Source of the DNA: an uncultured Gammaproteobacteria bacterium
Lineage (GTDB): Bacteria > Patescibacteriota > Microgenomatia > Levybacterales > UBA12049
Direction of reading: 5' to 3'
DNA length: 54,377 bases
NCBI GenBank assembly: GCA_964408485.1
Contig: CAYOZJ010000004.1
Location: 74,685-129,061, forward strand
Below are positions 6,572 through 54,377 of this stretch, piece by piece (position 1 is the first letter of the stretch; the number at the start of each line of letters is the position of its first letter). A program made the translations under genes and the position numbers. The notes beneath the pieces are model-generated. The model was not told the DNA's origin. It searched no databases and was given only the letters and a program-made list of their open reading frames with translations.

Positions 6572-6573
6572 TT

Positions 6574-25772: not shown

Positions 25773-26528
25773 GTGAGCGAAGTCTTCCTTTCTGTAATCA
25801 TCCCATCCTACGATGAAATGGCCAATTTGCAAAAGGGTGTTTTGGACAAAGTAAAATCCTTTCTGGATAAAAAAAGGTATACATATGAAGTTATCGTTGT
25901 GGATGATGGGTCTAAAGACGGGAGTGAAGAATTTGTGTCTAAATTTGTCTATGACAATAAAACATTCTCTCTTATTAAAGGCTCACATGCAGGTAAAGCA
26001 GGAGCAGTAACAACAGGAATGCTCAAAGCAAAAGGTAAATATGTGCTTTTTACTGATATGGATCAGGCAACACCAATTGAGGAAGTAGATAAACTGTTGC
26101 CTTTCTTTGAGAAAGGATATGACATTGTCATAGGATCCAGACATGGGAGAAAAGGTGCACCATGGACACGAAAACTTATGGCAAAAGGTATGGCAACATT
26201 TCGGACAGTCATAGTTGGGTTAAAAGGAATAATAGATACACAGTGCGGATTTAAAATGTTTACCAATGAAGCAGGGAAAAAACTCTTTCAAAAAATGTAT
26301 GATTTGCATCATGGGTATGCGCACGTTTCAGGATCTGCAGTAAGTGCAGGATTTGATGTGGAAGTGCTTTTCTTAGCACAAACAGCAGGCTACAAAATTA
26401 AAGAAGTTCCCGTTGAGTGGTTATATGTTGAGACAAGACGTGTTAGTCCATTAAAAGATTCAATTGATGCGGTAACGTACTTACTTAAAATACGACTCAA
26501 TCAATTGGAAGGAATTTATTCGAAATGA
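25773..26528 (+). CDS. GT2 glycosyltransferase, short DPM1/ALG5/GtrB-like (candidate polyprenyl-phosphate sugar synthase)
   Basis: 251 aa with a GTG start. Blocks LSVIIPSYDE, VVDDGSKDGS, HAGKAGAVTTG, FTDMDQATP and IVIGSR. Confidence 0.75.
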   Translation: MSEVFLSVIIPSYDEMANLQKGVLDKVKSFLDKKRYTYEVIVVDDGSKDGSEEFVSKFVYDNKTFSLIKGSHAGKAGAVTTGMLKAKGKYVLFTDMDQATPIEEVDKLLPFFEKGYDIVIGSRHGRKGAPWTRKLMAKGMATFRTVIVGLKGIIDTQCGFKMFTNEAGKKLFQKMYDLHHGYAHVSGSAVSAGFDVEVLFLAQTAGYKIKEVPVEWLYVETRRVSPLKDSIDAVTYLLKIRLNQLEGIYSK

Positions 26529-27676
26529 AATTATTTTCCCGATTCTTAATTCCAGTGTATATACTCACTATTGTTGCACTTTTTTTATACTCCTATACGC
26601 AAGTTGATTTAAGTTTAACTCTTTCTCGAGTTTCTCTTTGGCAAACAGTTGAAAAATGGTTTCAGTATATTGGATATTTTAATCGTCCATTATCAACGGC
26701 GCTTTTCTTAGGAATTCTTACTCTTCTTGGTTTTTGCTATTGGGGTTTTGCTGTAGGGAAAATGAAGAGGAAAACATTGTGGATACTTATATTTTTTACT
26801 GCTGTAGTATTAGTCTTTTCCTATAATGCTTTTTCATATGACTTATTTAACTACATTTTTGATGCAAAAATTGTCACGCATTACATGCAAAATCCCTATA
26901 CCCACAGGGCATTAGATTTTTCTGGTGATCCTATGCTGAGCTTTATGCACTGGGTAGAACGTACCTATCCGTATGGACCGGTTTGGTTATTTGTTACTGT
27001 TCCGGTATCTTTTATTGGTTTGCAGATTTTTCTTCCAACATTTTTCCTATTTAAGGGGATTGCTGCTCTCAGCTATGTTGGTATTTGTTGGAGTGTAGAG
27101 AAAATCCTTCAAAAAACAGATAAAGACAATGCTCTTCTTGGTCTAAGTCTTTTTGCCTTTAGTCCGCTCGTTATTATAGAAGGTTTGGTTTCTGCACATA
27201 ACGATATGCTTATGATTGTCTTTGCATCGTTTGCTCTGTTAACATTTGTGAGTAGAAAAAGTGTTTGGTCATTTTTATTACTCTTTCTGTCAATAGGCGT
27301 AAAGTTTGCAACAGCAGTACTTCTGCCATTGTGGATTATTGGATTTTTTTTCAAGAAAAAAGGAAGCGTGCATCAACTGTCAGTAATCAGTTTTATCTTT
27401 CTTGCTGTTGCTGCTATTGCTGCAAGTCTTCGCACTAATTTCCAGCCTTGGTATCTTTTGTTCTTGTTTCCATTTGCAGCACTCATCTACAAGCAAAAGG
27501 GAATTCTTGTTGGTTTTAGTATTTTTTCTACTTTGTCACTTTTACAATACGTTCCATTTCTCTATACAGGCAATTGGGATAAGCCAATTCCATCTATCCT
27601 ATCGGTTATGCTTTGGTCAAGTTTGGGGCTAAGTATTATTGCTGCAGGTATTATTAGCATTGCCAAACGCAGATAA
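26525..27676 (+). CDS. Polytopic membrane protein, DUF2029/GT87-like GT-C candidate
   Basis: 383 aa with about 10 TM segments. Outer-loop block FDAKIVTHYMQNPYTHRALDF...TYPYGPVWL. ATGA overlap with the upstream GT2. Confidence 0.4.
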   Translation: MKLFSRFLIPVYILTIVALFLYSYTQVDLSLTLSRVSLWQTVEKWFQYIGYFNRPLSTALFLGILTLLGFCYWGFAVGKMKRKTLWILIFFTAVVLVFSYNAFSYDLFNYIFDAKIVTHYMQNPYTHRALDFSGDPMLSFMHWVERTYPYGPVWLFVTVPVSFIGLQIFLPTFFLFKGIAALSYVGICWSVEKILQKTDKDNALLGLSLFAFSPLVIIEGLVSAHNDMLMIVFASFALLTFVSRKSVWSFLLLFLSIGVKFATAVLLPLWIIGFFFKKKGSVHQLSVISFIFLAVAAIAASLRTNFQPWYLLFLFPFAALIYKQKGILVGFSIFSTLSLLQYVPFLYTGNWDKPIPSILSVMLWSSLGLSIIAAGIISIAKRR

Positions 27677-27696
27677 TACAATTACAATTAGACAAT

Positions 27697-29187
27697 ATGA
27701 AGTTTTGGAAAACATCACTCACAACTCTTGGATTATTGGCTTCTTATCTTGCTCTTCGTCTCACAAACCTCATGAGTCTTCCACTTTTTACCGATGAGGC
27801 AATCTACACGAGATGGTCACAAATTGCACGATTTGATCCAAATTGGCGATTTATTTCACTCACCGATGGCAAACAGCCTATGTTTGTTTGGTGGGATATG
27901 ATTTTTATGCGGTTTACCCAAGACCCGCTTCTTGCCGGAAGACTGGTGAGCGTTGTCTGTGGTGTGCTTACAATAGTAGGATTATATTTTTTGGGCAGAG
28001 AAATATTTAAAAATAAATGGGTAGGACTTTTGAGTGCATCGCTCTATATATTATTTCCATTTGCTCTCGTATATGACAGAATGGCTCTCTATGACACTAT
28101 GGTTGGGACCTTTACTGTGTGGAGTCTATATCTTCTTATCCTGCAGGCAAGAAATCCTCGCGCATGGGTTGCATTTCTTTTAGGACTTGTTTTGGGTGGA
28201 GGGATGCTTACAAAAACATCGGCAAACTTTAGCTGGTATCTTCTTCCTGCAACCGTTGTGTTATTTGATTTTAAGGCAAAAGACAAATGGAAAAAATTTG
28301 GAAGATGGGTTGCTTTTTCCCTTCTTGCCATTGTGCTTGCAAATATGTACTACATGGTACTTCGGCTTTCACCGTTCTTCCACACAATTGCAGATAAAAA
28401 CAGTGTCTTTGTGTATCCACTTAATGAATGGTTATTGCATCCATGGGAATTTTTCTCAGGGAATTTAAGCGGACTGTGGGATTGGTTTAGTACATACTTC
28501 ACGTATCCTGTACTCGCGCTTTTAATCGGTGGATTATTTGTTTATAAAAAATTCTTAAAAGAAAAATTTGTCTTGATTGTCTATTTTGTTATTCCATTTC
28601 TTCTTTTAGCTCTTTTCGGGCGTACTATTTATCCTAGATTTATTTTCTTTATGACATTGCCTCTTCTTCCAATCGTTGCACTTTTTCTTCTGTGGTTGTA
28701 CGAATATGTTAAAAAATTCCCAGTGTGGATTTTTTGCGTTATTATCTTTTTTGCGCTATGGATACGAGCGGATTATCTTATCTTAACTGATTTTTCCCAT
28801 GCACCAATAGCAAAATCTGACCTTTCTCAATACATCAATGATTGGCCGGCAGGAGGAGGTATTACAGAAACCATTGCCTATTTAGGTAACCAAGCGAAAA
28901 ATAAAAAAATTTATGTTGCTTCAGAAGGGACATTCGGTTCATTGCCAACCTATGCTGTAGAGATTTACTTAGGAGACAATAAAAATATAGAAAAAAGAGG
29001 CATTTGGCCCGTTGATGATCAAATACCACAAGATTTATTAGAGAAGGCAAAAGTGATGAATACCTATATGATTTTCTATCAAATTCCAACCAAGCCATTG
29101 TGGCCTTTGCAGCTTATTGCTGAGTATAAAAAAGGTGCAGGGAGCGTAACCTTACGACTCTATAAAGTAAAAGCTCCAGAAAAATGA
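27697..29187 (+). CDS. ArnT/PMT (GT39/83)-like GT-C glycosyltransferase
   Basis: 496 aa. First-loop motif LPLFTDEAIYTRWSQI, multiple TM segments and a soluble C-terminal domain. Confidence 0.6.
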   Translation: MKFWKTSLTTLGLLASYLALRLTNLMSLPLFTDEAIYTRWSQIARFDPNWRFISLTDGKQPMFVWWDMIFMRFTQDPLLAGRLVSVVCGVLTIVGLYFLGREIFKNKWVGLLSASLYILFPFALVYDRMALYDTMVGTFTVWSLYLLILQARNPRAWVAFLLGLVLGGGMLTKTSANFSWYLLPATVVLFDFKAKDKWKKFGRWVAFSLLAIVLANMYYMVLRLSPFFHTIADKNSVFVYPLNEWLLHPWEFFSGNLSGLWDWFSTYFTYPVLALLIGGLFVYKKFLKEKFVLIVYFVIPFLLLALFGRTIYPRFIFFMTLPLLPIVALFLLWLYEYVKKFPVWIFCVIIFFALWIRADYLILTDFSHAPIAKSDLSQYINDWPAGGGITETIAYLGNQAKNKKIYVASEGTFGSLPTYAVEIYLGDNKNIEKRGIWPVDDQIPQDLLEKAKVMNTYMIFYQIPTKPLWPLQLIAEYKKGAGSVTLRLYKVKAPEK

Positions 29188-31517
29188 GAAAAACATTGGC
29201 GAGTCTGGGAATATTTTTCTTCGTGGTGCTATTGTTTTTCTGGCCTATTTTTAAAGGATACATTCCATTTCCAGGAGATTTGCTTATCGATAGTAATCCC
29301 TACCGATCATTGTCTGTTTTGGGATTTAATCCAGGAAGTTACCCCAATAAAGCCCAGGGGATGGATGTTGTTACCGAGATGTATCCCTGGAGATATTTTA
29401 CTATTCAAGAATTAAAGCAGGGAAGAATACCATTTTGGAATCCTCATAATTTCTCAGGAAATATTCATATGCAAAATTTTCAATCAAGTATATTCAATCC
29501 GTTTAATGCATTTTTCTTTCTTTTCTCCTTTAATTTTGCATGGACACTTTTTATTATGGTACAACCGCTTCTTGCGTCGATTTTCTTTTATCTGTTTGCA
29601 AGAGAATTAAAGGCTTCGCGGTTTGCAGCAGTTATTGGAGGCATTGCGTTTGCCTTTTCAGCGTATATGACTGTGTGGATTGAGTATGGCAATATTGCAG
29701 CAACGCTTGCGTATTTACCTCTTTTATTATTCTTCCTTATTCGGTACGTAAAAACCTTAGAAAAAAAATATTATGCAGGATTTGTTATATCCGGTGTTTT
29801 ACTTCTCTTGTCCGGGTATATTCAAGGTGCATTTTATAGCTATGGTGTTGCCGGTGCATTCGTTATTGTGCTCCTTTTTAAAAATAAAAAGATTCTTTCA
29901 GTAAAAAGAGTCTTTATCTTTGTAAGCATGTTTCTTCTTCCTGTCTTCTTAACATTTTTTCAGCTGTTTCCAACTGTGCAAGTTTTCTCTCAATCAAGCC
30001 GTTGGCCGTATAGCTTAAAACAATTTCAGGATATGCTTCAACCAATATGGTATTGGATTACACTTTTTTCGTCGGATTTTTTTGGCAATCCCGCAGCGCG
30101 AAATTATTACCTTTCAACAACGTATATAGAGCGTGTTGCATATATCGGTATTCCGATTCTTCTTTTTTCATTTTTAGGAATAACAAAAAAAAGGCCCTTT
30201 CTCTATTTTTTTCTTTCAATTGCAATTATTGTTTTGTTGTTAACAACAAATATTCCTGGTATTTCGTATTTTTATCTTCTTCCTATTCCTGTAATTAATA
30301 CAACTGTTCCAACGCGACTTTTAAGTATTTTTATGTTTGCCGGTATTGTTTTGGCTGTGTTTGGCATAGATTCTTTCTTCATACAAAGGAAGTTTCCCAA
30401 AAAACTCGTCATTGGTTTTGGTGCATGTTATGCATTGCTGTGGGGAGGATTACTTGCTGGAAAGCATTTCTTTCCACAATTCACATTACAAATTTCTGTA
30501 TCGCTCCACAACCTTTTTTTTCCGACTTTCCTTTTAGGATCCACGGTAGTGGTACTTTTTCTAGCTACAAAATATCAGCGCATTGCGAAAGTGCTTCTGT
30601 TGGGAATTATTATTGCTGATCTGTTTTACGGCTTTCAAAAGATAACACCTTTTGCGCCAAGTACATTCACGTATCCAACACATCCTGTTACAAATTTTCT
30701 GCAAAAAAATGCAGGGATACATAGATATTGGGGATATGGATCAGGATATATTTTTCCCAACATTCAAACAGTTGATGGAACGTACTCTCCAGAAGGTAAT
30801 GACCCTTTGCATATGAAAAATTATGGAGAATTGGTTACCAGCTCGTATGATGGAAAACTTCCCACGCTTCCTCCTCGTCCTGACGCAAATTTGGCTCAAG
30901 GATATGGCCAGGACGGTATGAAGAATCCGTATAGACAAAAACTCTTGAATCTTCTTGGTGTTAAATATATCGTGCAACATGACGAAATATTGCAAGATGG
31001 AAATGCTGATACTGCAACATTTCCAAAAGAGACGTATGAGTTGAGCTGGAGTCAGAGTCCCTGGCAAGTATATGAAAATAAAGCTGTTTTCCCTCGCTAC
31101 TTCTTGGTAGATACCTATGTTGTTGCAGTAGGTCAAAAAGCATTAAATGCACTTTACGCAAACGATCTGAGGCATACGGTTATTCTTAATATGCCTCTTA
31201 AAGAAAAAATATCTAGTGGTGCAACAGGATCGGTAAAACTTCTTGAGTATTCTCCACAAAAAATAACCTTCCAAGCAAAAACTACTGGTACTATGATTCT
31301 TTTTCTCTCAGATACCTATTATCCATCATGGAATGCAATTGTTGATGGGAAACCCACGTCAATTTTCCTTGCAGATTATGCATTTCGAGGTCTTGTTGTT
31401 CCAGCGGGACAACATACAATTAACATGTACTACCAGCCCCAGTACTTTTATGTAGGACTAGGTATTGCTGGGATTGCATTGATTGCTTTTCTGTTACTGT
31501 TGATATTTGTTGTATGA
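29184..31517 (+). CDS. YfhO-like polytopic membrane glycosyltransferase candidate (paralog 1)
   Basis: 777 aa. N-terminal block MYPWRYF..GRIPFWNPHNFSG..QSSIFNP and C-terminal block FLSDTYYPSWNAIVDGKP..VVPAGQHTINMYYQP, followed by a terminal TM helix. Confidence 0.7.
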   Translation: MRKTLASLGIFFFVVLLFFWPIFKGYIPFPGDLLIDSNPYRSLSVLGFNPGSYPNKAQGMDVVTEMYPWRYFTIQELKQGRIPFWNPHNFSGNIHMQNFQSSIFNPFNAFFFLFSFNFAWTLFIMVQPLLASIFFYLFARELKASRFAAVIGGIAFAFSAYMTVWIEYGNIAATLAYLPLLLFFLIRYVKTLEKKYYAGFVISGVLLLLSGYIQGAFYSYGVAGAFVIVLLFKNKKILSVKRVFIFVSMFLLPVFLTFFQLFPTVQVFSQSSRWPYSLKQFQDMLQPIWYWITLFSSDFFGNPAARNYYLSTTYIERVAYIGIPILLFSFLGITKKRPFLYFFLSIAIIVLLLTTNIPGISYFYLLPIPVINTTVPTRLLSIFMFAGIVLAVFGIDSFFIQRKFPKKLVIGFGACYALLWGGLLAGKHFFPQFTLQISVSLHNLFFPTFLLGSTVVVLFLATKYQRIAKVLLLGIIIADLFYGFQKITPFAPSTFTYPTHPVTNFLQKNAGIHRYWGYGSGYIFPNIQTVDGTYSPEGNDPLHMKNYGELVTSSYDGKLPTLPPRPDANLAQGYGQDGMKNPYRQKLLNLLGVKYIVQHDEILQDGNADTATFPKETYELSWSQSPWQVYENKAVFPRYFLVDTYVVAVGQKALNALYANDLRHTVILNMPLKEKISSGATGSVKLLEYSPQKITFQAKTTGTMILFLSDTYYPSWNAIVDGKPTSIFLADYAFRGLVVPAGQHTINMYYQPQYFYVGLGIAGIALIAFLLLLIFVV

Positions 31518-33055
31518 AAATAAAACACATAGCATTTATCGTAATTGGGTTTTTCATTTGTTTGCTGCCTCTTGCATGGGGAATTTTTCATGCAGGACTT
31601 TTTGTGAGTGATGATGGACACTGGATGGTAATACGACTATCTGCATTTTACGAAGCATTGTCTTCAGGACAATTTCCAGTACGAATATTACCGAGACTCA
31701 ATAATGGGTATGGGTATCCAGTTGCAGATTTTTTGTATCCACTGTTTTTATACATTGGATCTTTTCTTCACATTCTTAAAGTTCCATTTCTTCTTGATAT
31801 AAAAATAATTCTTTTTGGTAGTTTTCTTATTTCTGGAATTGGCATGTTTGTGTATTTGCGAAAATTCTTTGGGGATTTGGCATCCTTTTTAGGTGGATTG
31901 ATGTATGTTTATTTGCCCTATCATTTATATGACTTGTATACACGTGGTTCTGTTGGGGAAATTCTTAGTCTTTCTCTTGTGCCATTTGCATTGTGGGCTG
32001 TAGAAAAAAGATCATGGGCCCTTGTCTCTCTTTTTCTTGGACTTCTTATCCTTGCGCACAATACGCTCGCATTATTTTTTCTGCCGGTTATTATTCTTTA
32101 TGCAGTACTAAGAAAATTGCCACTCCTGTATATTGTAGGATTTTCTCTTGTTGGACTAGGATTGTCTGCATTCTTTTGGTTACCAGCCTTGCTTGATAGG
32201 CAATACACAGTTTTCGAGAGTATTGCGGTAAGTAATCCATTCACGTACTTTGTTAATAGTGTTTCTTACTACCTTGTTGGATGGATTGCGCTCGTTACTT
32301 TTGTGGCAGTGTTTTTTGTAAAATCATCTATTAAAAATAGAGAAGTACGCTTCTTTTATGTACTGGGAATTGTTTCATTATTCTTTTCCTTTTCAGTAAG
32401 TACTATTTTTTGGCATAGTCGCTACTTAGCACAATTTGTGCAATTTCCATTCCGATTCCTATCTGTCACACTTTTGGCAGAAAGTTTTTTGGGAGCCTTC
32501 CTCATAGAGAAGTGTAAGCAAAATAAAATTCTTGTTGGTATTTTCATTCTTTTAGTCGTATTCTCTGCTTTGCCCTATCTTTTTTCCAAACAATACGACA
32601 TGAATCCGGAATCCTTTTACGACACGAACACTGCAACAACAACAGTACAAAATGAATATATGCCAAAATGGATACACGGGTTACCAGAGGGATATGCATT
32701 TAATCGAGTTGGATTTTCAGATAAGAAGGCTTTCCTGAGTAATCTTGAGCTAAAAGGTACAAGGGTGTCCTTTACTGTCCTTGCGCCACACGCGACAACA
32801 GTTAGTATCTCTTTTGTATATTTTCCTGGTTGGCAAGCAACTGTTGATAGGAAAAGTGTATCAATAAGCCCAAGTAAAAATGGTCTTGTGGAATTTGCTG
32901 TCCCAGCAGGGAGACATAATATTATTTTTTGGTATAGTGAGACAATGCTTCATCTTTTTGCAGATGGTATTTCTGTTGTTTCATTACTATTTATAGTTGG
33001 ATTTTTCTTAAAAATAAAACCCGTTCGACAAGCTCAGGGTAAATATGAAAAATAG
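31514..33055 (+). CDS. Polytopic membrane protein of the PTPS-related / COG5617-like type (GT-C candidate), tandem paralog A
   Basis: 513 aa. N-terminal block FHAGLFVSDDGHWMVIRL..SSGQFPVRILP..GYGYPVADFLYPLFLY and C-terminal block VYFPGWQATVD..VPAGRHNIIFWY, followed by a TM helix. Confidence 0.45.
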   Translation: MKIKHIAFIVIGFFICLLPLAWGIFHAGLFVSDDGHWMVIRLSAFYEALSSGQFPVRILPRLNNGYGYPVADFLYPLFLYIGSFLHILKVPFLLDIKIILFGSFLISGIGMFVYLRKFFGDLASFLGGLMYVYLPYHLYDLYTRGSVGEILSLSLVPFALWAVEKRSWALVSLFLGLLILAHNTLALFFLPVIILYAVLRKLPLLYIVGFSLVGLGLSAFFWLPALLDRQYTVFESIAVSNPFTYFVNSVSYYLVGWIALVTFVAVFFVKSSIKNREVRFFYVLGIVSLFFSFSVSTIFWHSRYLAQFVQFPFRFLSVTLLAESFLGAFLIEKCKQNKILVGIFILLVVFSALPYLFSKQYDMNPESFYDTNTATTTVQNEYMPKWIHGLPEGYAFNRVGFSDKKAFLSNLELKGTRVSFTVLAPHATTVSISFVYFPGWQATVDRKSVSISPSKNGLVEFAVPAGRHNIIFWYSETMLHLFADGISVVSLLFIVGFFLKIKPVRQAQGKYEK

Positions 33056-34778
33056 ATTGCTTATTTGGCTATTGATTGCTTGTGGAGTTTTGGCAATTTG
33101 CTCATTTGCTGTAATTCCACTTTTTCATGCTGGTCTTTTTACTATGCATGATGATGAGCAAGTTGCCAGGTTACAGCAAATGTACTTGGTTATTTCTCAA
33201 GGACAGATACCTCCTCGTTGGATTCCTGATTTAGGGTTTGGATTTGGATATCCATTATTCAATTTCTATCCACCCCTTGTCTATTACGTAGGATCCCTTA
33301 TTCATTTTCTCGGATTTTCTTTTATTGATAGTACAAAGATTGTTTTTGGATTGGGATTTGTCTTGGCTGCATTAGCAATGTTTCTTTGGGTGCGAAAGCA
33401 TTATGGAATTATCCCTGGGCTTTTTGCTGCTATTTTATATACGTATGCACCGTATCATAGTGTTGATAGCTATGTACGAGGGGCATTGTCGGAATTTTTT
33501 TCTTGGATTTTTATTCCTCTTATTCTCCTTGCAATTGATCTTCTTATTGAAAAAAAGGAAAAGAAGTACATTGTCCTATTAGGTATTCTTTTTGGTTTGC
33601 TCATGCTGTCTCATACATTGGTTATGTTGCAATTTGGACCATTGCTTCTTGTGTATCTTGGATTTTTATTTTTCCAAAAAAGGAATCGAAATTTCACGAT
33701 GCTCATGCAGCTTCTCCTCGGTCTTGGATTAGGATTAGGGTTAACAGCGTATTTTTGGCTCCCATCGATTTTGGAAAAACAATATACGCTTGTTGATGCA
33801 ATCTTAACCAAGGAATTGGCAAGTTATGCTATTCACTTTGTCTGCCCTATACAACTATGGAGTGGAATTTGGGGATATGGTGGATCTGCGGCAGGCTGTC
33901 TTGATGGATTGTCATTTCAAATTGGGAAAGTGCAGACAATTATTGGCAGCTTAGGAGTTATTTTAAGCATATTATTTTTATTCAAAAGAAGACTTTTGGT
34001 AAGTATTGGTAGCGCTGTTCTTTTTTTGTGTTCAATATTTCTTGTTCTTCCTTATTCTAAATTCTTGTGGGACGTAGCAACACCGTTTTGGTATATCCAA
34101 TTTCCTTGGAGATACCTTCTTTTTGTTGCTGTGTTTTCCGCATTTTTAGGAGGATTTGTTTTATTTTTAGTGCAAAAACGATTTGGTACAGTTATTGCGA
34201 TTGTTTTAGGCTTAAGCTTGTCGTTGGTTGCTGTTTTTCAAGTAAGAAATTACTTTCAGCCTCAAGCGTACCGAATGGTAACCGATAAGGACATGGTTTC
34301 ACTCGAAGAACTTCAGGTACATGTGTCTGGACTTTCATATGAGTATGTACCTAAAGAAGAACCAACAATGTTATCGCCTCAAAAAACAACAGAACTTGTT
34401 TTACCAACATATGGAGGAGTAGATAGTTCAAGTTATGGATATCCTCCTAGCAATATGAAAGTAGTAGAAGTTGAAAACAAATCCTATTTGAAGAAATATA
34501 TAGTACGTGTATATAATACTAAGCTATATAACTCGGCAATTTTTCAGGTTAATACCTTTATTTTTCCCGGATGGACAGTATACGTAGATGGTAAGGAGCA
34601 AAAAAAACTTATTGATAATTACTTTCATGTAATACAAGTCGAATTACCAGCGGGAAGACACGAGGTAACGGTAAAATTTAACAATACGCCGATACGAGTT
34701 ATTGCGAGTGGTATTTCACTTGTGACAATAGGTATACTAATGACCTGTCTTTTTCTTTTTAAACGTAAAAAACAATGA
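33045..34778 (+). CDS. Polytopic membrane protein of the PTPS-related / COG5617-like type (GT-C candidate), tandem paralog B
   Basis: 577 aa. N-terminal block FHAGLFTMHDDEQVARL..SQGQIPPRWIP..GFGYPLFNFYPPLVYY and C-terminal block IFPGWTVYVDGKE..LPAGRHEVTVKF, followed by a TM helix. Confidence 0.45.
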   Translation: MKNRLLIWLLIACGVLAICSFAVIPLFHAGLFTMHDDEQVARLQQMYLVISQGQIPPRWIPDLGFGFGYPLFNFYPPLVYYVGSLIHFLGFSFIDSTKIVFGLGFVLAALAMFLWVRKHYGIIPGLFAAILYTYAPYHSVDSYVRGALSEFFSWIFIPLILLAIDLLIEKKEKKYIVLLGILFGLLMLSHTLVMLQFGPLLLVYLGFLFFQKRNRNFTMLMQLLLGLGLGLGLTAYFWLPSILEKQYTLVDAILTKELASYAIHFVCPIQLWSGIWGYGGSAAGCLDGLSFQIGKVQTIIGSLGVILSILFLFKRRLLVSIGSAVLFLCSIFLVLPYSKFLWDVATPFWYIQFPWRYLLFVAVFSAFLGGFVLFLVQKRFGTVIAIVLGLSLSLVAVFQVRNYFQPQAYRMVTDKDMVSLEELQVHVSGLSYEYVPKEEPTMLSPQKTTELVLPTYGGVDSSSYGYPPSNMKVVEVENKSYLKKYIVRVYNTKLYNSAIFQVNTFIFPGWTVYVDGKEQKKLIDNYFHVIQVELPAGRHEVTVKFNNTPIRVIASGISLVTIGILMTCLFLFKRKKQ

Positions 34779-36920: not shown

Positions 36921-36924
36921 ACGT

Positions 36925-39490: not shown

Positions 39491-39498
39491 CATGTATT

Positions 39499-41820: not shown

Positions 41821-42011
41821 TCAAATCGTTTTTTGGCAAAGAAAAATAAGTAGACAATTTCCACGATTCCTGCTGCGTTGAGTATAAGCATGACAACAAA
41901 CCAATTCTTTTGTCCCAGCTTTGCTGCATGCCACAAGGCTAATCCTTTCCAGAAAAGCGACCAGAGAAAAAGACCAAAGACAACCGGTGCCGGTATTGCA
42001 TTAAAATCCAT
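41790..42011 (-). CDS. Small two-TM membrane protein, DUF5652-like
   Basis: 73 aa. Block LWSLFWKGLALWHAAKLGQKNWFVVMLILNAAGIVEIVYLFFF. It has its own consensus promoter, and its 3' end overlaps the YfhO paralog 2 3' end by 31 nt (convergent). Confidence 0.6.
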   Translation of the reverse strand: MDFNAIPAPVVFGLFLWSLFWKGLALWHAAKLGQKNWFVVMLILNAAGIVEIVYLFFFAKKRFDYHTLLFWKK

Positions 42012-42017
42012 GCATTA

Positions 42018-42046: not shown

Positions 42047-42120
42047 AAATTTCTCTTTCACAAGATTTAGCTACGTAGCCAATCATTGTTAGGAATTAAA
42101 AACTAATATACAATTAGAGT

Positions 42121-45416: not shown

Positions 45417-45441
45417 AATGGAGAGGAAGACATCATCCCTG

Positions 45442-45462
45442 CCTTCTCCTCAAAGGAGAAGG
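45442..45462 (+). other. Perfect 9-bp stem-loop CCTTCTCCT-CAA-AGGAGAAGG in the YfhO3/GT2 spacer
   Basis: Read directly. The 3' arm is Shine-Dalgarno-like. A second Shine-Dalgarno-like motif, GAGGAG (45468-45473), lies 8 nt before ATG 45482. No T-run follows. Confidence 0.6.
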
Positions 45463-45481
45463 AGATTGAGGAGAAGTATTT

Positions 45482-46435
45482 ATGTTGAATATTAGTATTG
45501 TAATACCCAATTTTAATGGAGAAAAGTTACTTAAGAAAAATCTACCTCGCGTTTTAGCTGTTTTTAAAAGGTATAAAAAAGGAAAAACCCAAGTTATTGT
45601 TAGTGACGATGCCTCAAAGGACAATTCTGTTGAGTATTTGGTAGAGCTTGCAAAAAAAGAAGAAACACTGCTCGTGTTACAAAATAATACAGGGAAAAAT
45701 AAAGGATTTTCAGGAAACGTTGACAAAGGAGTAACAGTAGCAACAGGTGAAATCATTATCCTTCTTAATACCGATGTTGTCCCGCATGAGGATTTTCTTG
45801 AGCCCTTATTACAGCCCTTTCAAGATAAGGATGTTTTCGCAGTGGGGTGCATGGATGAAAGCGTAGAAGATGGAAAAATTGTACTTAGGGGAAGAGGCGT
45901 AGGAAAATGGAGAAGAGGATTTCTTATGCATAAAGCAGGAGACTTAGATGCATCAAATCAAACTCTTTGGGCAAGTTGTGGAAGTGGAGCATTCAGAAAA
46001 AGCATGTGGGATACAGTGGGAGGACTTAATAATGTTTATAATCCATTTTACTGGGAAGATATAGATTTATCATATAAAGCGCAAAAGATGGGATACCGTG
46101 TGCTTTTTGAAAAAAGGAGTATTGTGACTCATGCACACGAGGAAGGGGCAATTAAGAAAAACTATTCGTCATTCAATGTAACAAAAACCGCATATCGAAA
46201 TCAATTCTTCTTTACGTGGCTAAATGCAACTGATACAATCATTTTTGTCCAGCATTTTTTCTTTCTGCCTTATTTTCTTATACGTTCTTTCGTAAAAGGA
46301 GATAGAGCATTTTTAATTGGTTTTTGGAATGCGCTTATTATGCTTCCAAAGGTCTTGCAGGAAAGGAAAAAAATACAAAAACTCGTTAAGAAGTCCGATA
46401 GAGAAGTTATATCATTATTTTCAAGAGAAGCATGA
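45482..46435 (+). CDS. GT2 glycosyltransferase
   Basis: 317 aa. Blocks ISIVIPNFNGEK, VSDDASKDNS, LLNTDVVP and YWEDIDLSYK. Confidence 0.75.
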   Translation: MLNISIVIPNFNGEKLLKKNLPRVLAVFKRYKKGKTQVIVSDDASKDNSVEYLVELAKKEETLLVLQNNTGKNKGFSGNVDKGVTVATGEIIILLNTDVVPHEDFLEPLLQPFQDKDVFAVGCMDESVEDGKIVLRGRGVGKWRRGFLMHKAGDLDASNQTLWASCGSGAFRKSMWDTVGGLNNVYNPFYWEDIDLSYKAQKMGYRVLFEKRSIVTHAHEEGAIKKNYSSFNVTKTAYRNQFFFTWLNATDTIIFVQHFFFLPYFLIRSFVKGDRAFLIGFWNALIMLPKVLQERKKIQKLVKKSDREVISLFSREA

Positions 46436-47157
46436 AATTATCAATTATTGTCCCTGTTTTTAATGAAGAAAAAACAATCGTTCCTGTTTTGGAGCGACTT
46501 GTTGAGCTTGAGCTTCCTCGTGGAATACAGAAGGAAGTTATTGTTATTGATGACGGATCAAAAGATACCACACAAAAGCAGGTAAGAGATTTCCTTGCAA
46601 AAAATAAAAAATGCAATATTACTTTTTTTGAGCATCCAAAAAATTCTGGGAAAGGTGCCGCGGTGCGGACAGGAATAGAAAAGGCAACAGGTGAATATAT
46701 TGTTATTCAAGATGCGGATTTGGAATATAATCCCCATGATATTATCAAACTTCTTGACGAGATAACTCAGCATAATGCAGAAGTTGTCTATGGTACTCGG
46801 CTAAAACGACTTCCTCATTTTGAGAAAGAGGAGAAAACTGGAAGATTCTTGCTCCATTACTTGGGAAATAAATTTTTAAGTCTTGTAACAAGTGTATTGT
46901 ACGGACAATGGATTACAGATATGGAGACATGCTATAAAATGTTTCCTCGAAAAGCGGTACTCCATATGAACCTTACAGCAAGAGGGTTTGAATTCGAACC
47001 AGAAATTACTGCAAAGCTCCTGAAAGCGGGATTCACGATTGTCGAAATTCCCATTCAAACAAAACCCAGGTCATATAGTGAGGGGAAAAAACTCGATACA
47101 GTTAGAGACGGGAAAAAAGCACTTTCTACTCTTTTCGCAGAGCGCTTTTCAAAATAA
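46432..47157 (+). CDS. GT2 glycosyltransferase, DPM1/GtrB-like (candidate polyprenyl-phosphate sugar synthase)
   Basis: 241 aa. Blocks LSIIVPVFNEEKTI, VIDDGSKDTT, NSGKGAAVRTG, IQDADLEY and VVYGTRLKR. Confidence 0.8.
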   Translation: MKLSIIVPVFNEEKTIVPVLERLVELELPRGIQKEVIVIDDGSKDTTQKQVRDFLAKNKKCNITFFEHPKNSGKGAAVRTGIEKATGEYIVIQDADLEYNPHDIIKLLDEITQHNAEVVYGTRLKRLPHFEKEEKTGRFLLHYLGNKFLSLVTSVLYGQWITDMETCYKMFPRKAVLHMNLTARGFEFEPEITAKLLKAGFTIVEIPIQTKPRSYSEGKKLDTVRDGKKALSTLFAERFSK

Positions 47158-49544
47158 TGAGAAAAATCCTCGCGTATTGGCCTATTTGGTTATTTCTTTT
47201 TTTGACCATTTTCCTATTCCGACAATATGTTTTCTTGGGAAAAGTTCCATTCGCTGGCAATTTACTTGTCTCATTTTATGAGCCGTGGAAATCCTATTCA
47301 TGGGGTGGGTATGGATCCAATGGTCCGTCCAATAAGCCAATAGGATTTGATAGCTTACGTATCTTTTATCCACTGCGTAGCCTGACAGTAGATTCCTTTA
47401 AGCATGTTACTCTTCCTCTGTGGAACCCATATGATTTTGCCGGCAATACGCAACTCGCAACATATCAGTCAGCAGTTTTTTTTCCACTCATGCCATTATT
47501 TTTACTTCTTCCTCAAATTGACGCTTGGTCACTTATTGTTTTTCTCGCGCCATTTTTGACAGCACTATTTACCTATCTTTTTCTTCGAAAGTTACCCCTT
47601 TCAAAAAAATCGAGTAGTATCGGTGCTCTTTCTTTTGGATTTTCGGCAGGGATACTTGTCCTCGTTGAAGAATCATTCATGTCGGTATATTCCTTGATGT
47701 TTTTACCCCTTATGCTTTTAGGTATTTATTCATTCTTTCGTGAGAGAAAATTTCGATGGTTTGCCCTTTTTATTATTGGGGGTGTTTTCTCAATTTTTTC
47801 TGGGTGGTTTCAGTCGACGCTGTATGTATTTCTTCTTTCTTTTTCCTGGGTTATCTTTCTCTCTTTCCAACAAAAGCAGTTGAAAAGGGGAGCAATGCTC
47901 ATGGGAGGATTTGGTCTTATCGTGCTTCTGGCTGGACCTCACCTTATTCCTAATATCGAATCATATATATATTCTGCACGGGGAACAACCGATGCACGGT
48001 TTCTCTTTGACATGTATTTACTGAAGCCATGGGAGCTCATCACCGCCATTGCCCCTGATTTTTTTGGTAATCCTGGAACATACAGTTACTTTGGCAGAGG
48101 ATTTTTTTATGAGCGTGTTTTGTCTATTGGTATCGGAGGCCTCATATTAGGTTTGGTTGCGTTACTACGAAATAAGAAGAGTTCTACGGAATGGTTTTTT
48201 AGTATTTCTTGGGTTGTAACCATGCTGCTTGGTATTTCTCTTCCGACAACGTGGTTTATTCTCTATACACTTCATATCCCAATTATTTCAACTATTTTGC
48301 CTTCTCGAATATTTTTACTCAGTACATTTTGTCTTTCCACTCTTGCAGCATATGGTATGGAGTCATTCCTCAAGAATCCTCCTAAAAAAAGTTTTATCGT
48401 TGCAAGTGCCATATTATTTCTTATTCTTGGTGGTGCATGGGCATTCGTTGTGTATCAGAAAATACATCATCCATGGAATGAATACGCAACAATAAGTTTA
48501 AAAAACCTTTTCCTACCAAGTATTCTTGTTGGTGTAGCAGTAGTTGGGGGTATGTTATTGTTATGTAAGCAAAAAAGTAAAAAATATAGTGGGTTTGTTG
48601 TGCTTCTTCTTGTGGCACTTGTTGGGAGTATTTATTTTGCCAATAAATACCTTTATTTCTCAGAAAGACAATTTACATTTCCTGCGTCACCTGTGTTGTC
48701 TCAACTTCAAAAAAAAGCAGGCAATAATAGAGTATGGAGCTATGGTGAAGGGTATGTTATACGAAATTTTTCCTCGCAGTACCATTTGCAGTCACCAGAG
48801 GGATATGACTCATTTTATATTCGGACTTTTGGAGAATTTATCGAGGCATCAAAGAATGGAGGAAAATACACAAAACAGATTCCTCGAGCTGATGCTCAGT
48901 TGGTAAGTGTTAATACTCTTTCAGAGATTGAAAAGAATTTGTCGTTGCGAAAAGCGTTGAATTTATTAGGAGTGCGGTATATCTCTGCAAAAGAAAACTC
49001 CGTAGACGAAACGTTTGTTACCGAACATCCAGAGAGCGGGTTTAAAAAAGTATGGTCTGACTCAGTGTACGTGATATACGAGAATACCAGTGCTTTCCCG
49101 AGAGCATTCTTTGTTGATTCGTATCAAGTTATTAATCCCAAGGATCAACTTTCACTACTATTTTCAAACGCAACTGATTTATCAAAGACCCTTTTATTAC
49201 AAGAGGATCCAAAAATAAAGCAAACAAACAGCAACTTAATTTCATCGACACTAATAAAAGAATATAGACCAGAAAGTATAGCTATTTCTGTACAGACAAA
49301 TAAAACAGCCCTTCTTTTTCTTTCAGACAATAATTATCCAGGATGGAAAGCATACATTGATGGAAAAGAGACCCATATCTTTACAGCAGATCATGCATTT
49401 AGAAGCGTAATCGTACCACGTGGTAGTCATACAATTCTTTTTACCTACCAACCATTATCAGTGTTGCTTGGTTTTGTGAGCTTTTTGGTCGGTCTCTTGC
49501 TTTTTGTCATTTTCGGATTTACGATAAAAGGATCATTTCGATGA
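47157..49544 (+). CDS. YfhO-like polytopic membrane glycosyltransferase candidate (paralog 4)
   Basis: 795 aa. Blocks VTLPLWNPYDFAGNTQLATYQSAVFFP and FLSDNNYPGWKAYIDGKE..IVPRGSHTILFTYQP, followed by a terminal TM helix. TAATG overlap with the upstream GT2. Confidence 0.7.
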   Translation: MRKILAYWPIWLFLFLTIFLFRQYVFLGKVPFAGNLLVSFYEPWKSYSWGGYGSNGPSNKPIGFDSLRIFYPLRSLTVDSFKHVTLPLWNPYDFAGNTQLATYQSAVFFPLMPLFLLLPQIDAWSLIVFLAPFLTALFTYLFLRKLPLSKKSSSIGALSFGFSAGILVLVEESFMSVYSLMFLPLMLLGIYSFFRERKFRWFALFIIGGVFSIFSGWFQSTLYVFLLSFSWVIFLSFQQKQLKRGAMLMGGFGLIVLLAGPHLIPNIESYIYSARGTTDARFLFDMYLLKPWELITAIAPDFFGNPGTYSYFGRGFFYERVLSIGIGGLILGLVALLRNKKSSTEWFFSISWVVTMLLGISLPTTWFILYTLHIPIISTILPSRIFLLSTFCLSTLAAYGMESFLKNPPKKSFIVASAILFLILGGAWAFVVYQKIHHPWNEYATISLKNLFLPSILVGVAVVGGMLLLCKQKSKKYSGFVVLLLVALVGSIYFANKYLYFSERQFTFPASPVLSQLQKKAGNNRVWSYGEGYVIRNFSSQYHLQSPEGYDSFYIRTFGEFIEASKNGGKYTKQIPRADAQLVSVNTLSEIEKNLSLRKALNLLGVRYISAKENSVDETFVTEHPESGFKKVWSDSVYVIYENTSAFPRAFFVDSYQVINPKDQLSLLFSNATDLSKTLLLQEDPKIKQTNSNLISSTLIKEYRPESIAISVQTNKTALLFLSDNNYPGWKAYIDGKETHIFTADHAFRSVIVPRGSHTILFTYQPLSVLLGFVSFLVGLLLFVIFGFTIKGSFR

Positions 49545-50785: not shown

Positions 50786-50787
50786 AA

Positions 50788-52698: not shown

Positions 52699-52766
52699 GA
52701 CAAACGCCTACTAGAAGTATATATGATTTTTTGAAAATACAATACTTGCATATGAGTTTTTTCCGC

Positions 52767-52772
52767 TATAAT
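52767..52772 (+). promoter_or_regulatory. TATAAT -10 box placed 7 nt before GTG 52780 (leaderless layout)
   Basis: Read directly. There is only a weak -35 (TTGCAT at 52746-52751, 15-nt spacer). Confidence 0.4.
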
Positions 52773-52779
52773 AAGAAAG

Positions 52780-54377
52780 GTGAAGGTAAAGCTTTTCCTT
52801 GTCATTATTATTGTCTTAGCAGGACTTCTCCGGTTTTGGCAGCTTGGAGTATTGCCGCCATCTCTGACGTGGGATGAGACTGCTTGGGGATATAATGCAT
52901 ACAGTTTGGGAATAGATGGCAGAGATGAATTTGGAAGATTCCTTCCGTTGGACTACTTGGAGTCATTTGGTGATTATAAGCCACCAGTATATGCATATTT
53001 AGATGTTATTCCGGTAAAGGTGTTTGGACTTAATGAATTCGCAACCCGTTTCCCATCAGCTCTTCTTGGAACACTTTCTGTTTTGATTACTTACTTTTTA
53101 GTTGTTAGGTTATTTTCTCAGTCAAATAAAAAACAATTGTATGGGCTTGTTGCTGCATTGTTTCTTGCTGTCTCGCCGTGGCATATTATGCTTTCTCGTG
53201 CAGCATTTGAAGCAAATATTGCGACATTTTTTATTATGACTGGCGTATGGTTATTTTTATCCTTTTCTCAGACAAAAAAGTCACAATACCTATTCTTGTC
53301 TGTGTTGTCTTTTATTCTTTCTGTTTACACATTCAATAGTGCGAGAGTAGTAGCACCGCTTTTAGTAGTGGTTTTAAGCCTTTTTTCTTGGAAGTTGCTT
53401 TGGGAAAAGAAAAAAACAACGATAATTGCTTTGGTTTTTGGTATTATCCTTCTTCTTCCGGTAATTCATTTCTTTCTTTCCCCGCAGTCAAAGCTTCGCT
53501 ATAACGAAGTAAATATATTTTCCGATGTTTCGCTTGTCAAAGAGTCCAATCAGGAAATTACCAACGATGGAAATGTCTTTTGGTCAAAAGCGCTTCACAA
53601 TAGACGTTTTATCTATGCTGCAGCCTACGTGCAGCATTTCTTGGATAATTTAGGGCCTCAATACTTATTTATTCAAGGAGACGGGAATCCAAAATTTTCT
53701 ACCCAAGATGTTGGCGAGCTTTATTTATTTGATTTGCCCTTTTTACTCATTGGTACACTATTTCTTTTTCGAAAGAGAATAGGGTTTTGGTGGATTGTTC
53801 CATTATGGCTTCTTTTAGCTATTGTTCCAGCAGCTGTTGCTCGTGAGACACCACATGCGCTGCGAACAGAAGGAGCATTGCCAACCTGGCAAATTCTTGG
53901 TGCCGTTGGATTTGTAGAATCTTTTGTATTTTTTAAAAAATACGGCAAATTATTTTTAATTGTATCCGGCATTATTCTGACTGGGAGTGTTGTTTATTTT
54001 CTTCATGGATATTACACGCATTACGCGCGTCAATTTTCAGCAGAGTGGCAATATGGATATAAAGATGCGCTCATTTTTGCAAAGCAACACGAAGGAGAAT
54101 ATGCAAATATTGTTTTTACACAAGAGCTAGGTAGACCCTACATTTATACGCTTTTTTATAATAGGATACGTCCAGAGGTGTTTCGATCAACAGCAACGGT
54201 AACAAGAGATGCATTTGGATTTGTAGATGTAACAAAGGTTGGAAAATACGCATTCCCAACAGAAATACACCAGGTTACAAAGACGCTCTATATTGTTACA
54301 CCACAAGAAGTACCCATGAGTGTTCACATTGTGAAGACATTTCCCTTGCTAAATGGTCAACCGTCCCTGGTGGCATA
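52780..54377 (+). CDS. ArnT/PMT (GT39/83)-like GT-C glycosyltransferase, 3'-truncated by the window end
   Basis: Not in the supplied ORF track because no stop falls inside the window. The frame is open from the stop at 52753-52755 to 54377. My translation from GTG 52780 reads VKVKLFLVIIIVLAGLLRFWQLGVLPPSLTWDETAWGYNAYSL...FATRFPSALLG...VSPWHIMLSRAAFEAN, a typical PMT_2-like N-terminus. The exact start is uncertain. Confidence 0.65.
   Translation, partial: MKVKLFLVIIIVLAGLLRFWQLGVLPPSLTWDETAWGYNAYSLGIDGRDEFGRFLPLDYLESFGDYKPPVYAYLDVIPVKVFGLNEFATRFPSALLGTLSVLITYFLVVRLFSQSNKKQLYGLVAALFLAVSPWHIMLSRAAFEANIATFFIMTGVWLFLSFSQTKKSQYLFLSVLSFILSVYTFNSARVVAPLLVVVLSLFSWKLLWEKKKTTIIALVFGIILLLPVIHFFLSPQSKLRYNEVNIFSDVSLVKESNQEITNDGNVFWSKALHNRRFIYAAAYVQHFLDNLGPQYLFIQGDGNPKFSTQDVGELYLFDLPFLLIGTLFLFRKRIGFWWIVPLWLLLAIVPAAVARETPHALRTEGALPTWQILGAVGFVESFVFFKKYGKLFLIVSGIILTGSVVYFLHGYYTHYARQFSAEWQYGYKDALIFAKQHEGEYANIVFTQELGRPYIYTLFYNRIRPEVFRSTATVTRDAFGFVDVTKVGKYAFPTEIHQVTKTLYIVTPQEVPMSVHIVKTFPLLNGQPSLVA

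Follow-up and report, generated by a model that had tools for sequence, protein, structure and literature searches.

In mycobacteria and corynebacteria, lipomannan/lipoarabinomannan (LAM) and arabinogalactan are built by many glycosyltransferases (GTs) of the GT-C type, which act in series outside the membrane on polyprenyl-monophosphate sugars made by short DPM1-like GT2 enzymes (Ppm1, PimE, MptA/B/C, Emb, Aft and PpgS/Rv3779 are the proteins compared here). N-glycosylation in Haloferax is encoded by the Agl cluster (AglJ, G, I, E, D, R, S, P and B). For the lactococcal polysaccharide pellicle (PSP), WpsA, a GT2 without transmembrane (TM) helices, loads GlcNAc onto C55 monophosphate; the product is lengthened by cytoplasmic GTs, exported by a Wzx-type flippase, and then polymerised and joined to rhamnan by GT-C-fold enzymes (PMC10821137). 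The streptococcal GacI/J/K/L system uses PSP-like parts for a single sugar, with the Wzx-type flippase GacK (PMC8035078) and with GacI, TM-less like WpsA, priming C55-P (PMC8035078; PMC10821137). Here we analyse an array of GT and flippase genes that runs from position 25773 to the end of a 54,377-nucleotide stretch of contig CAYOZJ010000004.1 (hereafter the window), in which we name each gene by its left-hand coordinate. The array has a core that is conserved among relatives, and it probably builds an uncharacterised cell-surface glycan of its lineage.

Judged from the genes alone, the part 34775-39499 has the same logic as WpsA-J (a TM-less GT2, a Wzx flippase, extending GTs and a GT-C enzyme), and the whole PSP-type gene set (TM-less GT2, cytoplasmic GTs, Wzx, GT-C) lies within 34775-45416. 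The PSP branch, moreover, needs no phosphoglycosyltransferase. However, the array lacks a WpsB/GacJ-type (DUF2304) activator and carries a DUF5652 gene with no detectable relation to it; it has no rhamnan genes; it holds four core GT-C genes (YfhO and PTPS_related) plus seven or more flanking ones, where the lactococcal system has two or three; and its host is a bacterium of the candidate phyla radiation (CPR) rather than a Firmicute. The CsbB/GtcA/YfhO, GtlA/GtlB and GacIJKL systems share a scheme in which a GT-A enzyme makes the C55-P-sugar, a flippase turns it over and a YfhO- or PMT_2-type GT-C enzyme transfers the sugar to an envelope polymer (PMC8035078). The flanking GT2/GT-C sets of the array resemble these three- and four-component systems, but the array has no GtrA/GtcA-type flippase, its GT2s lack the membrane anchor of CsbB and GtrB, and up to four GT-C genes follow one GT2. 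We know of no teichoic acid or rhamnan that serves as an acceptor in CPR bacteria. The YfhO proteins of B. subtilis, S. aureus and Listeria move GlcNAc from C55-P-GlcNAc onto teichoic acid; no teichoic acid genes were seen in the window.

The actinobacterial likeness lies in the pair 25773 and 26525 (PF26314, MptA_B_family), which mirrors Ppm1 and MptA/B, and in 49541, whose structure model resembles PimE and the ALG/PIG-M enzymes. In contrast, the actinobacterial genes are scattered over a 4-Mb genome and not arrayed, whereas the array lacks PimA/PimB, Emb and Aft homologues, is dominated by YfhO and PTPS_related proteins, and has a Wzx flippase and cytoplasmic GT2s embedded in it. The Haloferax cluster likewise loads a lipid monophosphate by AglJ-like GT2s and extends the product by further GT2s, and it includes a Wzx-like protein (AglR), a PMT_2-like GT-C enzyme (AglS) and a methyltransferase, a kind of gene also found in the arrays of relatives. 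The array nevertheless lacks an AglB/STT3 oligosaccharyltransferase, and its host is bacterial.

Gene order of the array among relatives

Relatives were sought by scanning species-representative genomes with the YfhO protein 39499 as query, which gave 252 related stretches. Gene order was counted in the best 80 of these (42-64% identical to 39499); all 80 carry a 39499 orthologue, and the figures are conditional on that gene. The informative titles among these relatives name Levybacteria/Levyibacteriota, Gottesmanbacteria, Woesebacteria, the Microgenomates group or the Patescibacteria group. The rest of the window fits a CPR bacterium (Lon, MgsA, Nramp, a split transketolase and lamin-tail-domain proteins; 35-42% GC), and the host is a Microgenomates-type CPR bacterium. 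Since even the nearest relative is just 64% identical in 39499, the collection scanned holds no close genome of the lineage that the window represents.

The core has the order 31514-33045-34775-35469-36844-37833-38678-39499-42121-43185-45482(-46432), always on one strand. Its upstream part is kept in 59 of the 62 relatives whose sequence reaches at least 8.3 kb upstream of the YfhO gene: 44 of the 62 have the canonical set of seven genes there, and 15 have minor variants. In ten of the variants an additional PTPS_related gene precedes the YfhO gene, and the 38678-type GT2 has moved to directly behind the YfhO gene. The genes 42121-43185-45482 come next in 55 of the 58 loci with at least 5.8 kb downstream, preceded in 12 of these by the relocated 38678-type GT2 and accompanied in 37 by 46432. 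Counted over all 80 loci, positional orthologues were found of 31514 in 56, of 33045 in 68, of 42121 in 73, of 43185 in 70, of 45482 in 61 and of 46432, which is present in about 60% of relatives, in 40. The median identity of the core proteins to those of the window ranges from 33 to 63%, the short GT2s being the most conserved (34775, 63%).

Each gene of the window is the best match at the same position in the relatives, which indicates that the paralogues diverged before these lineages split. A first interpretation made from the window alone (the sequence-only reading) had seen the locus as parallel cassettes, each passing a lipid-linked sugar to GT-C enzymes. This picture suits the variable flanks described below; it does not suit the core, which is fixed, with one positional orthologue per gene. 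One conserved product accordingly fits the fixed 12-gene core (31514-47157) better than parallel decoration modules do. The number and diversity of GT-C genes, which had been singled out as unusual, turned out to be the norm in this lineage: every 22-kb sample from a relative holds 5-9 GT-C genes or more.

At the 34775 position, a divergent short GT2 of the same type occupies 28 of 63 loci. It has the same length and no TM segment, with about 25% identity and matches of 50-75 bits; 21 of the 28 loci also lack a 46432-type GT2, and many have a 287-aa methyltransferase downstream. These features suggest that a different sugar may be primed in that clade.

Content on either side of the core is variable. 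The GT-C gene after the 46432-type GT2 changes with lineage: it is mostly of the PMT_2 type and otherwise YfhO (as in the window), GT87-like or PTPS_related, and at the 47157 position most relatives have one of the three other types instead of YfhO. More generally, the flanks of relatives contain PMT_2, further YfhO, GT87/MptA_B-like, PTPS_related and DUF2079 proteins, S-adenosylmethionine (SAM) methyltransferases (22 loci), a type I phosphodiesterase, an NAD-dependent epimerase and another GT4. On the left, the array begins directly after a tRNA-Glu gene. Its opening, a 251-aa GT2 followed by MptA_B-family and PMT_2 genes and then, behind zero or one extra gene, by YfhO, is also found in the nearest relative, L083, whose array follows the same housekeeping neighbours (MgsA, Nramp, Lon, DsbD-thioredoxin), and in a Levybacteria genome, L084, where it stands after type IV pilus genes.

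On the right, 52756 runs past the end of the window, so the locus is truncated there. A relative, DASQJJ010000006 (L081 1-9921, 61% identity), shows a continuation in which the 50788 orthologue is followed by a PMT, two PMT_2 and a PTPS_related gene and then by a GT2, an NAD-dependent epimerase/dehydratase, a GT4 and a 425-aa protein without Pfam match; this array runs at least 10 kb further than that of the window. The extent of 28.6 kb reported in the sequence-only reading was thus reproduced as a lower bound, and from the continuation the window's locus is probably about 40 kb long, with 15 or more GT-C genes. Set against the complete chromosome of one relative (762,565 bp), we infer that the array would take up roughly 4% of a genome of that type. 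A genomic island acquired by horizontal transfer was considered and rejected: the array does not differ in GC content from the remainder of the window, L083 has the same housekeeping flank, and the array is lineage-wide. We consider it fairly probable that this is an envelope-glycan locus passed on vertically throughout the lineage, and that the window holds its left and central part.

The Pfam scan of the relatives' unclassified ORFs covered the larger clusters and a few singletons. In the arrays of relatives there are also polytopic families without Pfam match, of about 650 aa (13 TM segments), about 570 aa and about 500 aa (for example L005 7293-9239, L042 17591-19291 and L032 18899-20398), which may be additional, unrecognised GT-C-like families. 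A Gottesmanbacteria PMT_2 protein (L044 15507-16934, minus strand) gives a weak, sub-threshold match to DUF2304 at its C-terminus (E 0.007). We take DUF2304 to be the GacJ/WpsB family, and this C-terminus is possibly a fused partner domain.

Enzyme families and flippase

The open reading frames (ORFs) of the window were listed and scanned against Pfam, their products were compared by all-against-all BLASTP, and TM segments were located by hydropathy. Every gene named in the sequence-only reading was recovered at its coordinates, and its counts from 25773 to the window end (seven GT2, one GT4, one Wzx-type flippase and 11 polytopic GT-C-type proteins) were borne out by Pfam, homologues and structure models. 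The 11 GT-C-type proteins comprise four YfhO, two PTPS_related, three PMT_2/GT39-like and two MptA_B/GT87-like members. All 11 are polytopic, with 6-13 TM segments by hydropathy, and nine proteins, 8228 included, have matches to GT-C families above the Pfam gathering score.

The four YfhO proteins (29184, 39499, 43185, 47157) score 64-110 bits against a cut-off of 28.5, with both the N- and the C-terminal part of the profile matched. They are mutually paralogous, as had been proposed, being 28-35% identical over their full length (29184 is 31-34% identical to the other three), and in three of the four the hydropathy profile places a final TM segment near the C-terminus. The two PTPS_related proteins 31514 and 33045 are likewise confirmed as paralogues, both scoring above the gathering threshold and sharing 26% identity. 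PMT_2/PMT matches above threshold were obtained for 27697, 52756 and 8228; the last had been described as a twelfth GT-C-like gene away from the array, and its PMT_2 score is 35.6 bits against a cut-off of 26.1. PTPS_related, PMT, PMT_2 and GT87 belong to Pfam clan CL0111 (PMC7801869), YfhO has been treated as a GT-C-fold enzyme (PMC8035078), and PF10131 is described as 'function unknown' (PMC7801869). The predicted GT-C fold of the YfhO and PTPS_related proteins rests on Pfam and this literature; searches of PDB sequences with YfhO (a single sequence and a 23-sequence profile) and with a GT87-like profile returned nothing usable.

The PTPS_related proteins 31514 and 33045 share with the YfhO paralogues a C-terminal module of about 80 aa that includes the last membrane segment. 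It was recognised from a Pfam match of 31514 to the C-terminal part of YfhO and from BLAST matches between the C-termini, and it may be an acceptor-binding or partner-binding part.

The two proteins described as GT87-like, 26525 and 49541, stay below the GT87 cut-off of the local Pfam copy (17.6 and 20.9 bits against 25), and BLASTP found no link between them. Homologues and a profile-profile comparison tie both to a broader GT87/MptA_B-like group, in which their place within GT87 proper is tentative. Homologues of both carry PF09594 (GT87) and/or PF26314, the latter also precomputed for 26525 and named MptA_B_family (PF26314 was unreported locally even at E 10, the family being seemingly missing from that Pfam copy). 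In addition, hhalign aligns the 26525 family with the 49541 family at a probability of 95.8% (E 7e-9). An AlphaFold2 model of 49541 (pLDDT 88) was compared with the PDB by Foldseek, and its nine best matches are all GT-C enzymes, headed by GPI mannosyltransferase I (TM-score 0.59) and followed by ALG6, PimE (0.41) and ALG3. We conclude that 26525 and 49541 are small GT-C enzymes of the ALG/PIG-M/PimE structural type.

Three proteins had been called ArnT/PMT-like. For 27697 and 52756 this agrees with Pfam, whereas 50788 has no Pfam match even at E 10 and no PDB sequence match, and was placed among GT-C proteins through its homologues and its model. The homologues often carry PF13231, and some bear the NCBI name 'glycosyltransferase family 39'. 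The AlphaFold2 model (mean pLDDT 94) has GT-C proteins as all of its 37 best Foldseek matches in the PDB, among them OST/STT3, ALG12, PglB, ArnT, AglB, Pmt4, Emb and Aft, with moderate TM-scores (0.24-0.51). These homologues and the predicted structure place 50788 among the GT-C proteins as a divergent, GT39-like member.

GT-C enzymes are recognised by a DD or DE motif in the first outer loop (PMC7801869; PMC8035078). The sequence-only reading had proposed a conserved acidic residue in that loop as a check, and acidic residues after the first hydropathy segment are indeed kept in most of the GT-C families, their loop positions being taken from hydropathy only. In 31514, D33-D34 is kept in at least 95% of 48 aligned sequences; in 27697, D33-E34 is conserved in 22 orthologues; and orthologue alignments show H35-D36 conserved in 33045 and D40-E41 in 52756. 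In the 48-sequence alignment of 50788, D34 is invariant and E35 is present in at least 90%, directly after the first membrane helix. The 26525 family has an invariant D28 after its first TM segment, and the conserved acids of the 49541 family are D48, D95 and E101. For YfhO, D66 is invariant in the four paralogues and 19 orthologues and sits further along the stretch before the second segment; orthologues of 43185 keep D32, D43 and D62.

Among the cytoplasmic enzymes, the short GT2s 25773, 34775 and 46432 have no TM segment by hydropathy and share the motifs P..NE, DDGS.D, DxD and D..CGFK. In PDB sequence searches 34775 matches ArnC over its full length (residues 5-217 against 8-218, E 3e-20) and the Pyrococcus dolichol-P-mannose synthase 5mlz (6-222 against 24-241). 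The best NCBIfam matches of the short GT2s (AglJ, PgfS, ArnC and PpgS) are all sub-threshold, and no equivalog match was found for them (best 61-118 bits against cut-offs of 325-529). The AglJ model scores 79-118 bits against its equivalog cut-off of 325; for 46432 the AglJ match reaches 117 bits and the PpgS match 71 bits, the latter spanning positions 5-220 of the 226-position model. By sequence, then, the short GT2s appear to be of a broad polyprenyl-phosphate GT type without a named orthologue group, and 34775 is a candidate initiator or donor synthase acting on polyprenyl monophosphate. No membrane anchor was found for them in the window, neither TM helices of their own nor a DUF2304 partner; the DUF5652 protein is the sole small membrane protein there.

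NCBIfam gave no equivalog-level match for any other cytoplasmic GT or for the flippase 35469. Below threshold, 35469 matches the MOP flippase and O-glycosylation flippase models, and 37833 matches rhamnosyltransferase and GlfT1 models. By BLASTP, 38678 is a paralogue of 36844 (30% identical).

Proposed pathway and competing explanations

The general chemistry suggested in the sequence-only reading, in which a GT2 loads polyprenyl-P, the product is flipped and an outer GT-C enzyme transfers the sugar, agrees with the matches of the short GT2s to ArnC and dolichol-P-mannose synthase. We propose that 25773, 34775 and 46432 would each use a nucleotide sugar to load polyprenyl monophosphate with a sugar at the inner membrane face. 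The product of 34775 would then be extended in the cytoplasm by the GT2s starting at 36925, 37833 and 38741, and probably also by the GT4 42121 and the GT2 45482, to give a lipid-monophosphate-linked oligosaccharide that the Wzx protein 35469 would flip to the outer face. There, the PTPS_related pair 31514/33045 and the YfhO pair 39499/43185 would polymerise it and/or transfer it to an acceptor, possibly a glycopolymer of the wall or membrane or else a surface protein. The flanking sets (25773 with 26525, 27697 and 29184; 46432 with 47157, 49541, 50788 and 52756) would add single sugars from flipped polyprenyl-P-sugars, and their differences between lineages would diversify the product. Donors, step order, product and acceptor are predicted here from homology and gene order, and we hold this pathway, with moderate confidence, to be the best reading overall. 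A more specific form of it is tentative and on balance doubtful: the product may be a major, lineage-defining envelope glycopolymer (a lipoglycan or wall polysaccharide), built almost wholly on the outer face by 11-15 or more GT-C enzymes of four families from three polyprenyl-monophosphate donors without a phosphoglycosyltransferase, the core making the backbone and the variable flanks providing surface diversity.

The layout of the array could also be explained by a battery of independent modules, in which each short GT2 and the GT-C genes downstream of it add one type of sugar to envelope polymers or proteins made elsewhere and only 34775-39490 makes an oligosaccharide. That every run of GT-C genes has a short GT2 close to its head, as already noted in the sequence-only reading and upheld by the ORF listing and Pfam, favours such modules, as do the change of the GT-C gene after the 46432-type GT2 between lineages and the example of the CsbB/YfhO, GtlA/GtlB, Csd and Gts pairs, which work in this way (PMC8035078). 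We nevertheless regard independent modules as unlikely: they would be expected to come and go, whereas the 12 genes of the core keep a single order, each with one orthologue, in about 80 species; the five cytoplasmic GTs that are not priming enzymes (three GT2s by the Wzx gene, one GT4 and one more GT2) imply a unit of several sugars; and 11 or more GT-C enzymes would depend on only three donor synthases. Glycosylation of proteins, with a lipid-linked oligosaccharide transferred en bloc in an O- or N-type reaction to S-layer, pilin or other secreted proteins and further sugars added by the PMT_2-type enzymes, would have parallels in the archaeal Agl, streptococcal Pgf and actinobacterial Ppm1/Pmt systems. 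AglJ and PgfS are the best sub-threshold NCBIfam matches of 34775 and 46432, the Wzx protein matches the 'O-glycosylation flippase' model, the PMT/PMT_2 families include protein O-mannosyltransferases, the SAM methyltransferases in the arrays of 22 relatives recall AglP, and in one relative type IV pilus genes, including a pilin, lie just upstream of the array. An oligosaccharyltransferase of the STT3/AglB/PglB or PglL/O-antigen-ligase type is, however, missing from the window and the scanned arrays, no candidate acceptor gene is conserved beside the array (the protein encoded by 23388 is not in the neighbourhood of the nearest relative), the characterised YfhO enzymes named in PMC8035078 act on teichoic acids, and MptA/MptB-type enzymes act on lipomannan. 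We consider protein glycosylation quite unlikely.

The adjacency of a Wzx flippase to several cytoplasmic GTs would equally suit a classical Wzx/Wzy-dependent polysaccharide on undecaprenyl diphosphate (Und-PP), similar to a capsule or O-antigen, with some of the polytopic proteins serving as Wzy polymerases or ligases. Yet neither a phosphoglycosyltransferase (Bac_transf, Glycos_transf_4) nor Wzy was found in the window or in any scanned array ORF of the relatives, Wzz and an export protein were also missing from the window and the scanned relatives, and all the large membrane proteins fall into GT-C families or folds; a classical Wzx/Wzy locus was therefore rejected and is highly improbable.

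Several points weigh against the polyprenyl-monophosphate pathway that we favour. The NCBIfam scores lie so far under their cut-offs that no sugar or linkage can be assigned. No activator of the GacJ/WpsB type (DUF2304) is present for the TM-less GT2s and no GtrA-type flippase for the monosaccharide donors, so that the Wzx protein or an unlinked flippase would have to serve these donors. A phosphoglycosyltransferase could be encoded elsewhere in the genome, in which case the core would belong to an ordinary Und-PP pathway. The conservation figures are limited to genomes with a 39499 orthologue, and for the 80 relatives ORF calling was naive, with classes assigned by phmmer from the proteins of the window. 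Titles other than those given above also occur among the 80, namely 34 'uncultured Gammaproteobacteria', one Pacearchaeota and one Eisenbacteria; these are probably unreliable, because the loci concerned share the same gene order. Finally, we know of no glycan from any Microgenomates organism.

A full-text literature search, with most subscription journals outside its reach, found no description of this locus, nor of any GT-C array, in CPR bacteria. Its components are of kinds already known from other systems; what is apparently new, as far as checked, is the scale of the array, a family mix in which YfhO and PTPS_related prevail, the lack of a phosphoglycosyltransferase, the DUF5652 gene embedded in the array and the class-wide synteny in minimal genomes. 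To our knowledge, the envelope composition and host attachment of CPR/Patescibacteria are largely unknown, and the Microgenomates have no cultured representative. As their genomes are heavily reduced, a 30-40 kb locus that has kept its synteny in Levy-, Gottesman- and Woesebacteria-type genomes amounts to a large outlay, evidently under selection, and it offers a concrete candidate for the main surface glycan of Microgenomates-type bacteria. If the more specific form of the proposed reading is true, an envelope glycopolymer would play in these cells the part that teichoic acids or lipomannan play elsewhere, and the surface diversity generated by the variable flanks would be relevant to host attachment or phage evasion. 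The locus would possibly be a second case, found beyond the Firmicutes, in which an oligosaccharide is assembled on a lipid monophosphate and no phosphoglycosyltransferase is involved. It also brings together, in the context of a pathway, a natural set of uncharacterised GT-C families (PTPS_related, CPR-type YfhO, MptA_B-like and Pfam-less polytopic), and its layout of conserved core and variable flanks could serve to mark surface-type diversity in metagenomes.

Layout of the window and neighbouring genes

Features of the array, with the separate twelfth GT-C gene; positions are those of the window.
Feature	Position	Strand	Basis and remarks
tRNA-Glu (CTC), left edge of array	25516..25590	-	ARAGORN; Rfam RF00005 61.8 bits
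Short GT2, 251 aa, no TM, first array gene	25773..26528	+	Glycos_transf_2 E 7.6e-27
Small GT-C, MptA_B/GT87-like, 383 aa, 11 TM	26525..27676	+	homologues; GT87 17.6 bits
PMT_2/GT39-type GT-C, 496 aa	27697..29187	+	PMT_2 E 9.5e-15, PMT E 3.7e-8
YfhO paralogue, 777 aa, left flank	29184..31517	+	YfhO E 5e-20
PTPS_related GT-C A, 513 aa, first core gene	31514..33055	+	PTPS_related E 3.9e-11
PTPS_related GT-C B, 577 aa, core	33045..34778	+	PTPS_related E 3.6e-16
Short GT2, 235 aa, no TM, core	34775..35482	+	Glycos_transf_2 E 7e-32
Wzx/MOP-type flippase, 483 aa, core	35469..36920	+	Polysacc_synt_3 E 6e-50
GT2, core; probable start ATG 36925	36844..37836	+	Glycos_transf_2 E 1.5e-19
GT2, 303 aa, core	37833..38744	+	Glyco_tranf_2_3 and Glycos_transf_2
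GT2, core; probable start ATG 38741	38678..39490	+	Glycos_transf_2 E 1.3e-19
YfhO paralogue, 773 aa, core	39499..41820	+	YfhO E 1e-26
DUF5652 protein, 73 aa, 2 TM, inside core	41790..42011	-	DUF5652 E 6.7e-23
GT4, 355 aa, core	42121..43188	+	Glycos_transf_1 E 1e-21
YfhO paralogue, 743 aa, core	43185..45416	+	YfhO E 1.6e-31
GT2, 317 aa, core; C-terminal hydrophobic segment 253-271	45482..46435	+	Glycos_transf_2 E 4e-23
Short GT2, 241 aa, no TM, last core gene	46432..47157	+	Glycos_transf_2 E 1.4e-35
YfhO paralogue, 795 aa, variable right flank	47157..49544	+	YfhO E 9.5e-18
Small GT-C, GT87/MptA_B-like, 414 aa	49541..50785	+	homologues, structure model; GT87 20.9 bits
Divergent GT39/PMT_2-like GT-C, 636 aa	50788..52698	-	homologues, structure model
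PMT_2/PMT GT-C, cut by window end	52756..54377	+	PMT_2 E 1.4e-12, PMT E 1.5e-11
Separate twelfth GT-C, PMT_2, 504 aa, 16 kb upstream of array	8228..9742	-	PMT_2 E 1.3e-8

According to the sequence-only reading, 20 of 21 ORFs were of the glycosylation type and 18 of the genes were co-directional. The 20 were confirmed, and the 21st, which had been left unnamed, is the DUF5652 membrane protein; the 18 genes do share one strand, in a run that this antisense 73-aa gene interrupts. Twelve start/stop overlaps, mostly ATGA, had also been reported: twelve junctions overlap, nine of them as ATGA if the ATG starts 36925 and 38741 of that reading are assumed, and the other three are one TAATG (-1), one of -11 and one of -14. 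These two starts are probably more plausible than those of the longest ORFs, because the GT2 domain then begins near residue 5 (in the long ORF of 36844 it starts at residue 32) and the junctions become +4 and an ATGA overlap.

The DUF5652 gene is found at the same position and on the same strand in 49 of the 80 loci. Its 3' end shares 31 nt with the stop end of the YfhO gene 39499, and it diverges from the GT4 gene 42121 across a 109-bp gap with weak, consensus-level promoter-like hexamers on both strands (the promoter and terminator scans gave consensus-level hints only). The protein has no match to DUF2304 and, beyond its own family, only a 12.5-bit match to Wzz at chance level; with no DUF2304 signal, a kinship with GacJ/WpsB is speculative. 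We speculate further that it may be an accessory membrane partner.

Scans of the window with Rfam and a tRNA finder gave the tRNA-Glu at the left edge of the array as their sole match. Just upstream of the array lies the gene of a 473-aa secreted protein (23388-24809, plus strand) with a glycine-rich region (Gly_rich_2 E 3e-23) and a Ser/Thr-rich C-terminal half; it was considered as a linked acceptor and rejected, being absent from beside the array in L083 and L084. In L084, the stretch directly upstream of the array (4705-7915) encodes a T2SSE ATPase, a T2SSF protein, an N_methyl pilin and an LVIVD-repeat protein. This pilin is a possible glycosylation target, the adjacency being seen in one genome only.

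Further to the left in the window, a 634-aa ORF without Pfam family or membrane segment (18087-19991, minus strand) stands between Lon and a DUF2231 membrane protein; it is missing from the matching place in L083. At the start of the window, a weak signal-peptidase-like ORF is followed by two tandem signal-anchored lamin-tail-domain proteins (619-2507, plus strand). The transketolase is split into an N-terminal half (4558-5448) and a part with the pyrimidine-binding domain and C-terminal half (5490-6485), on the plus strand.

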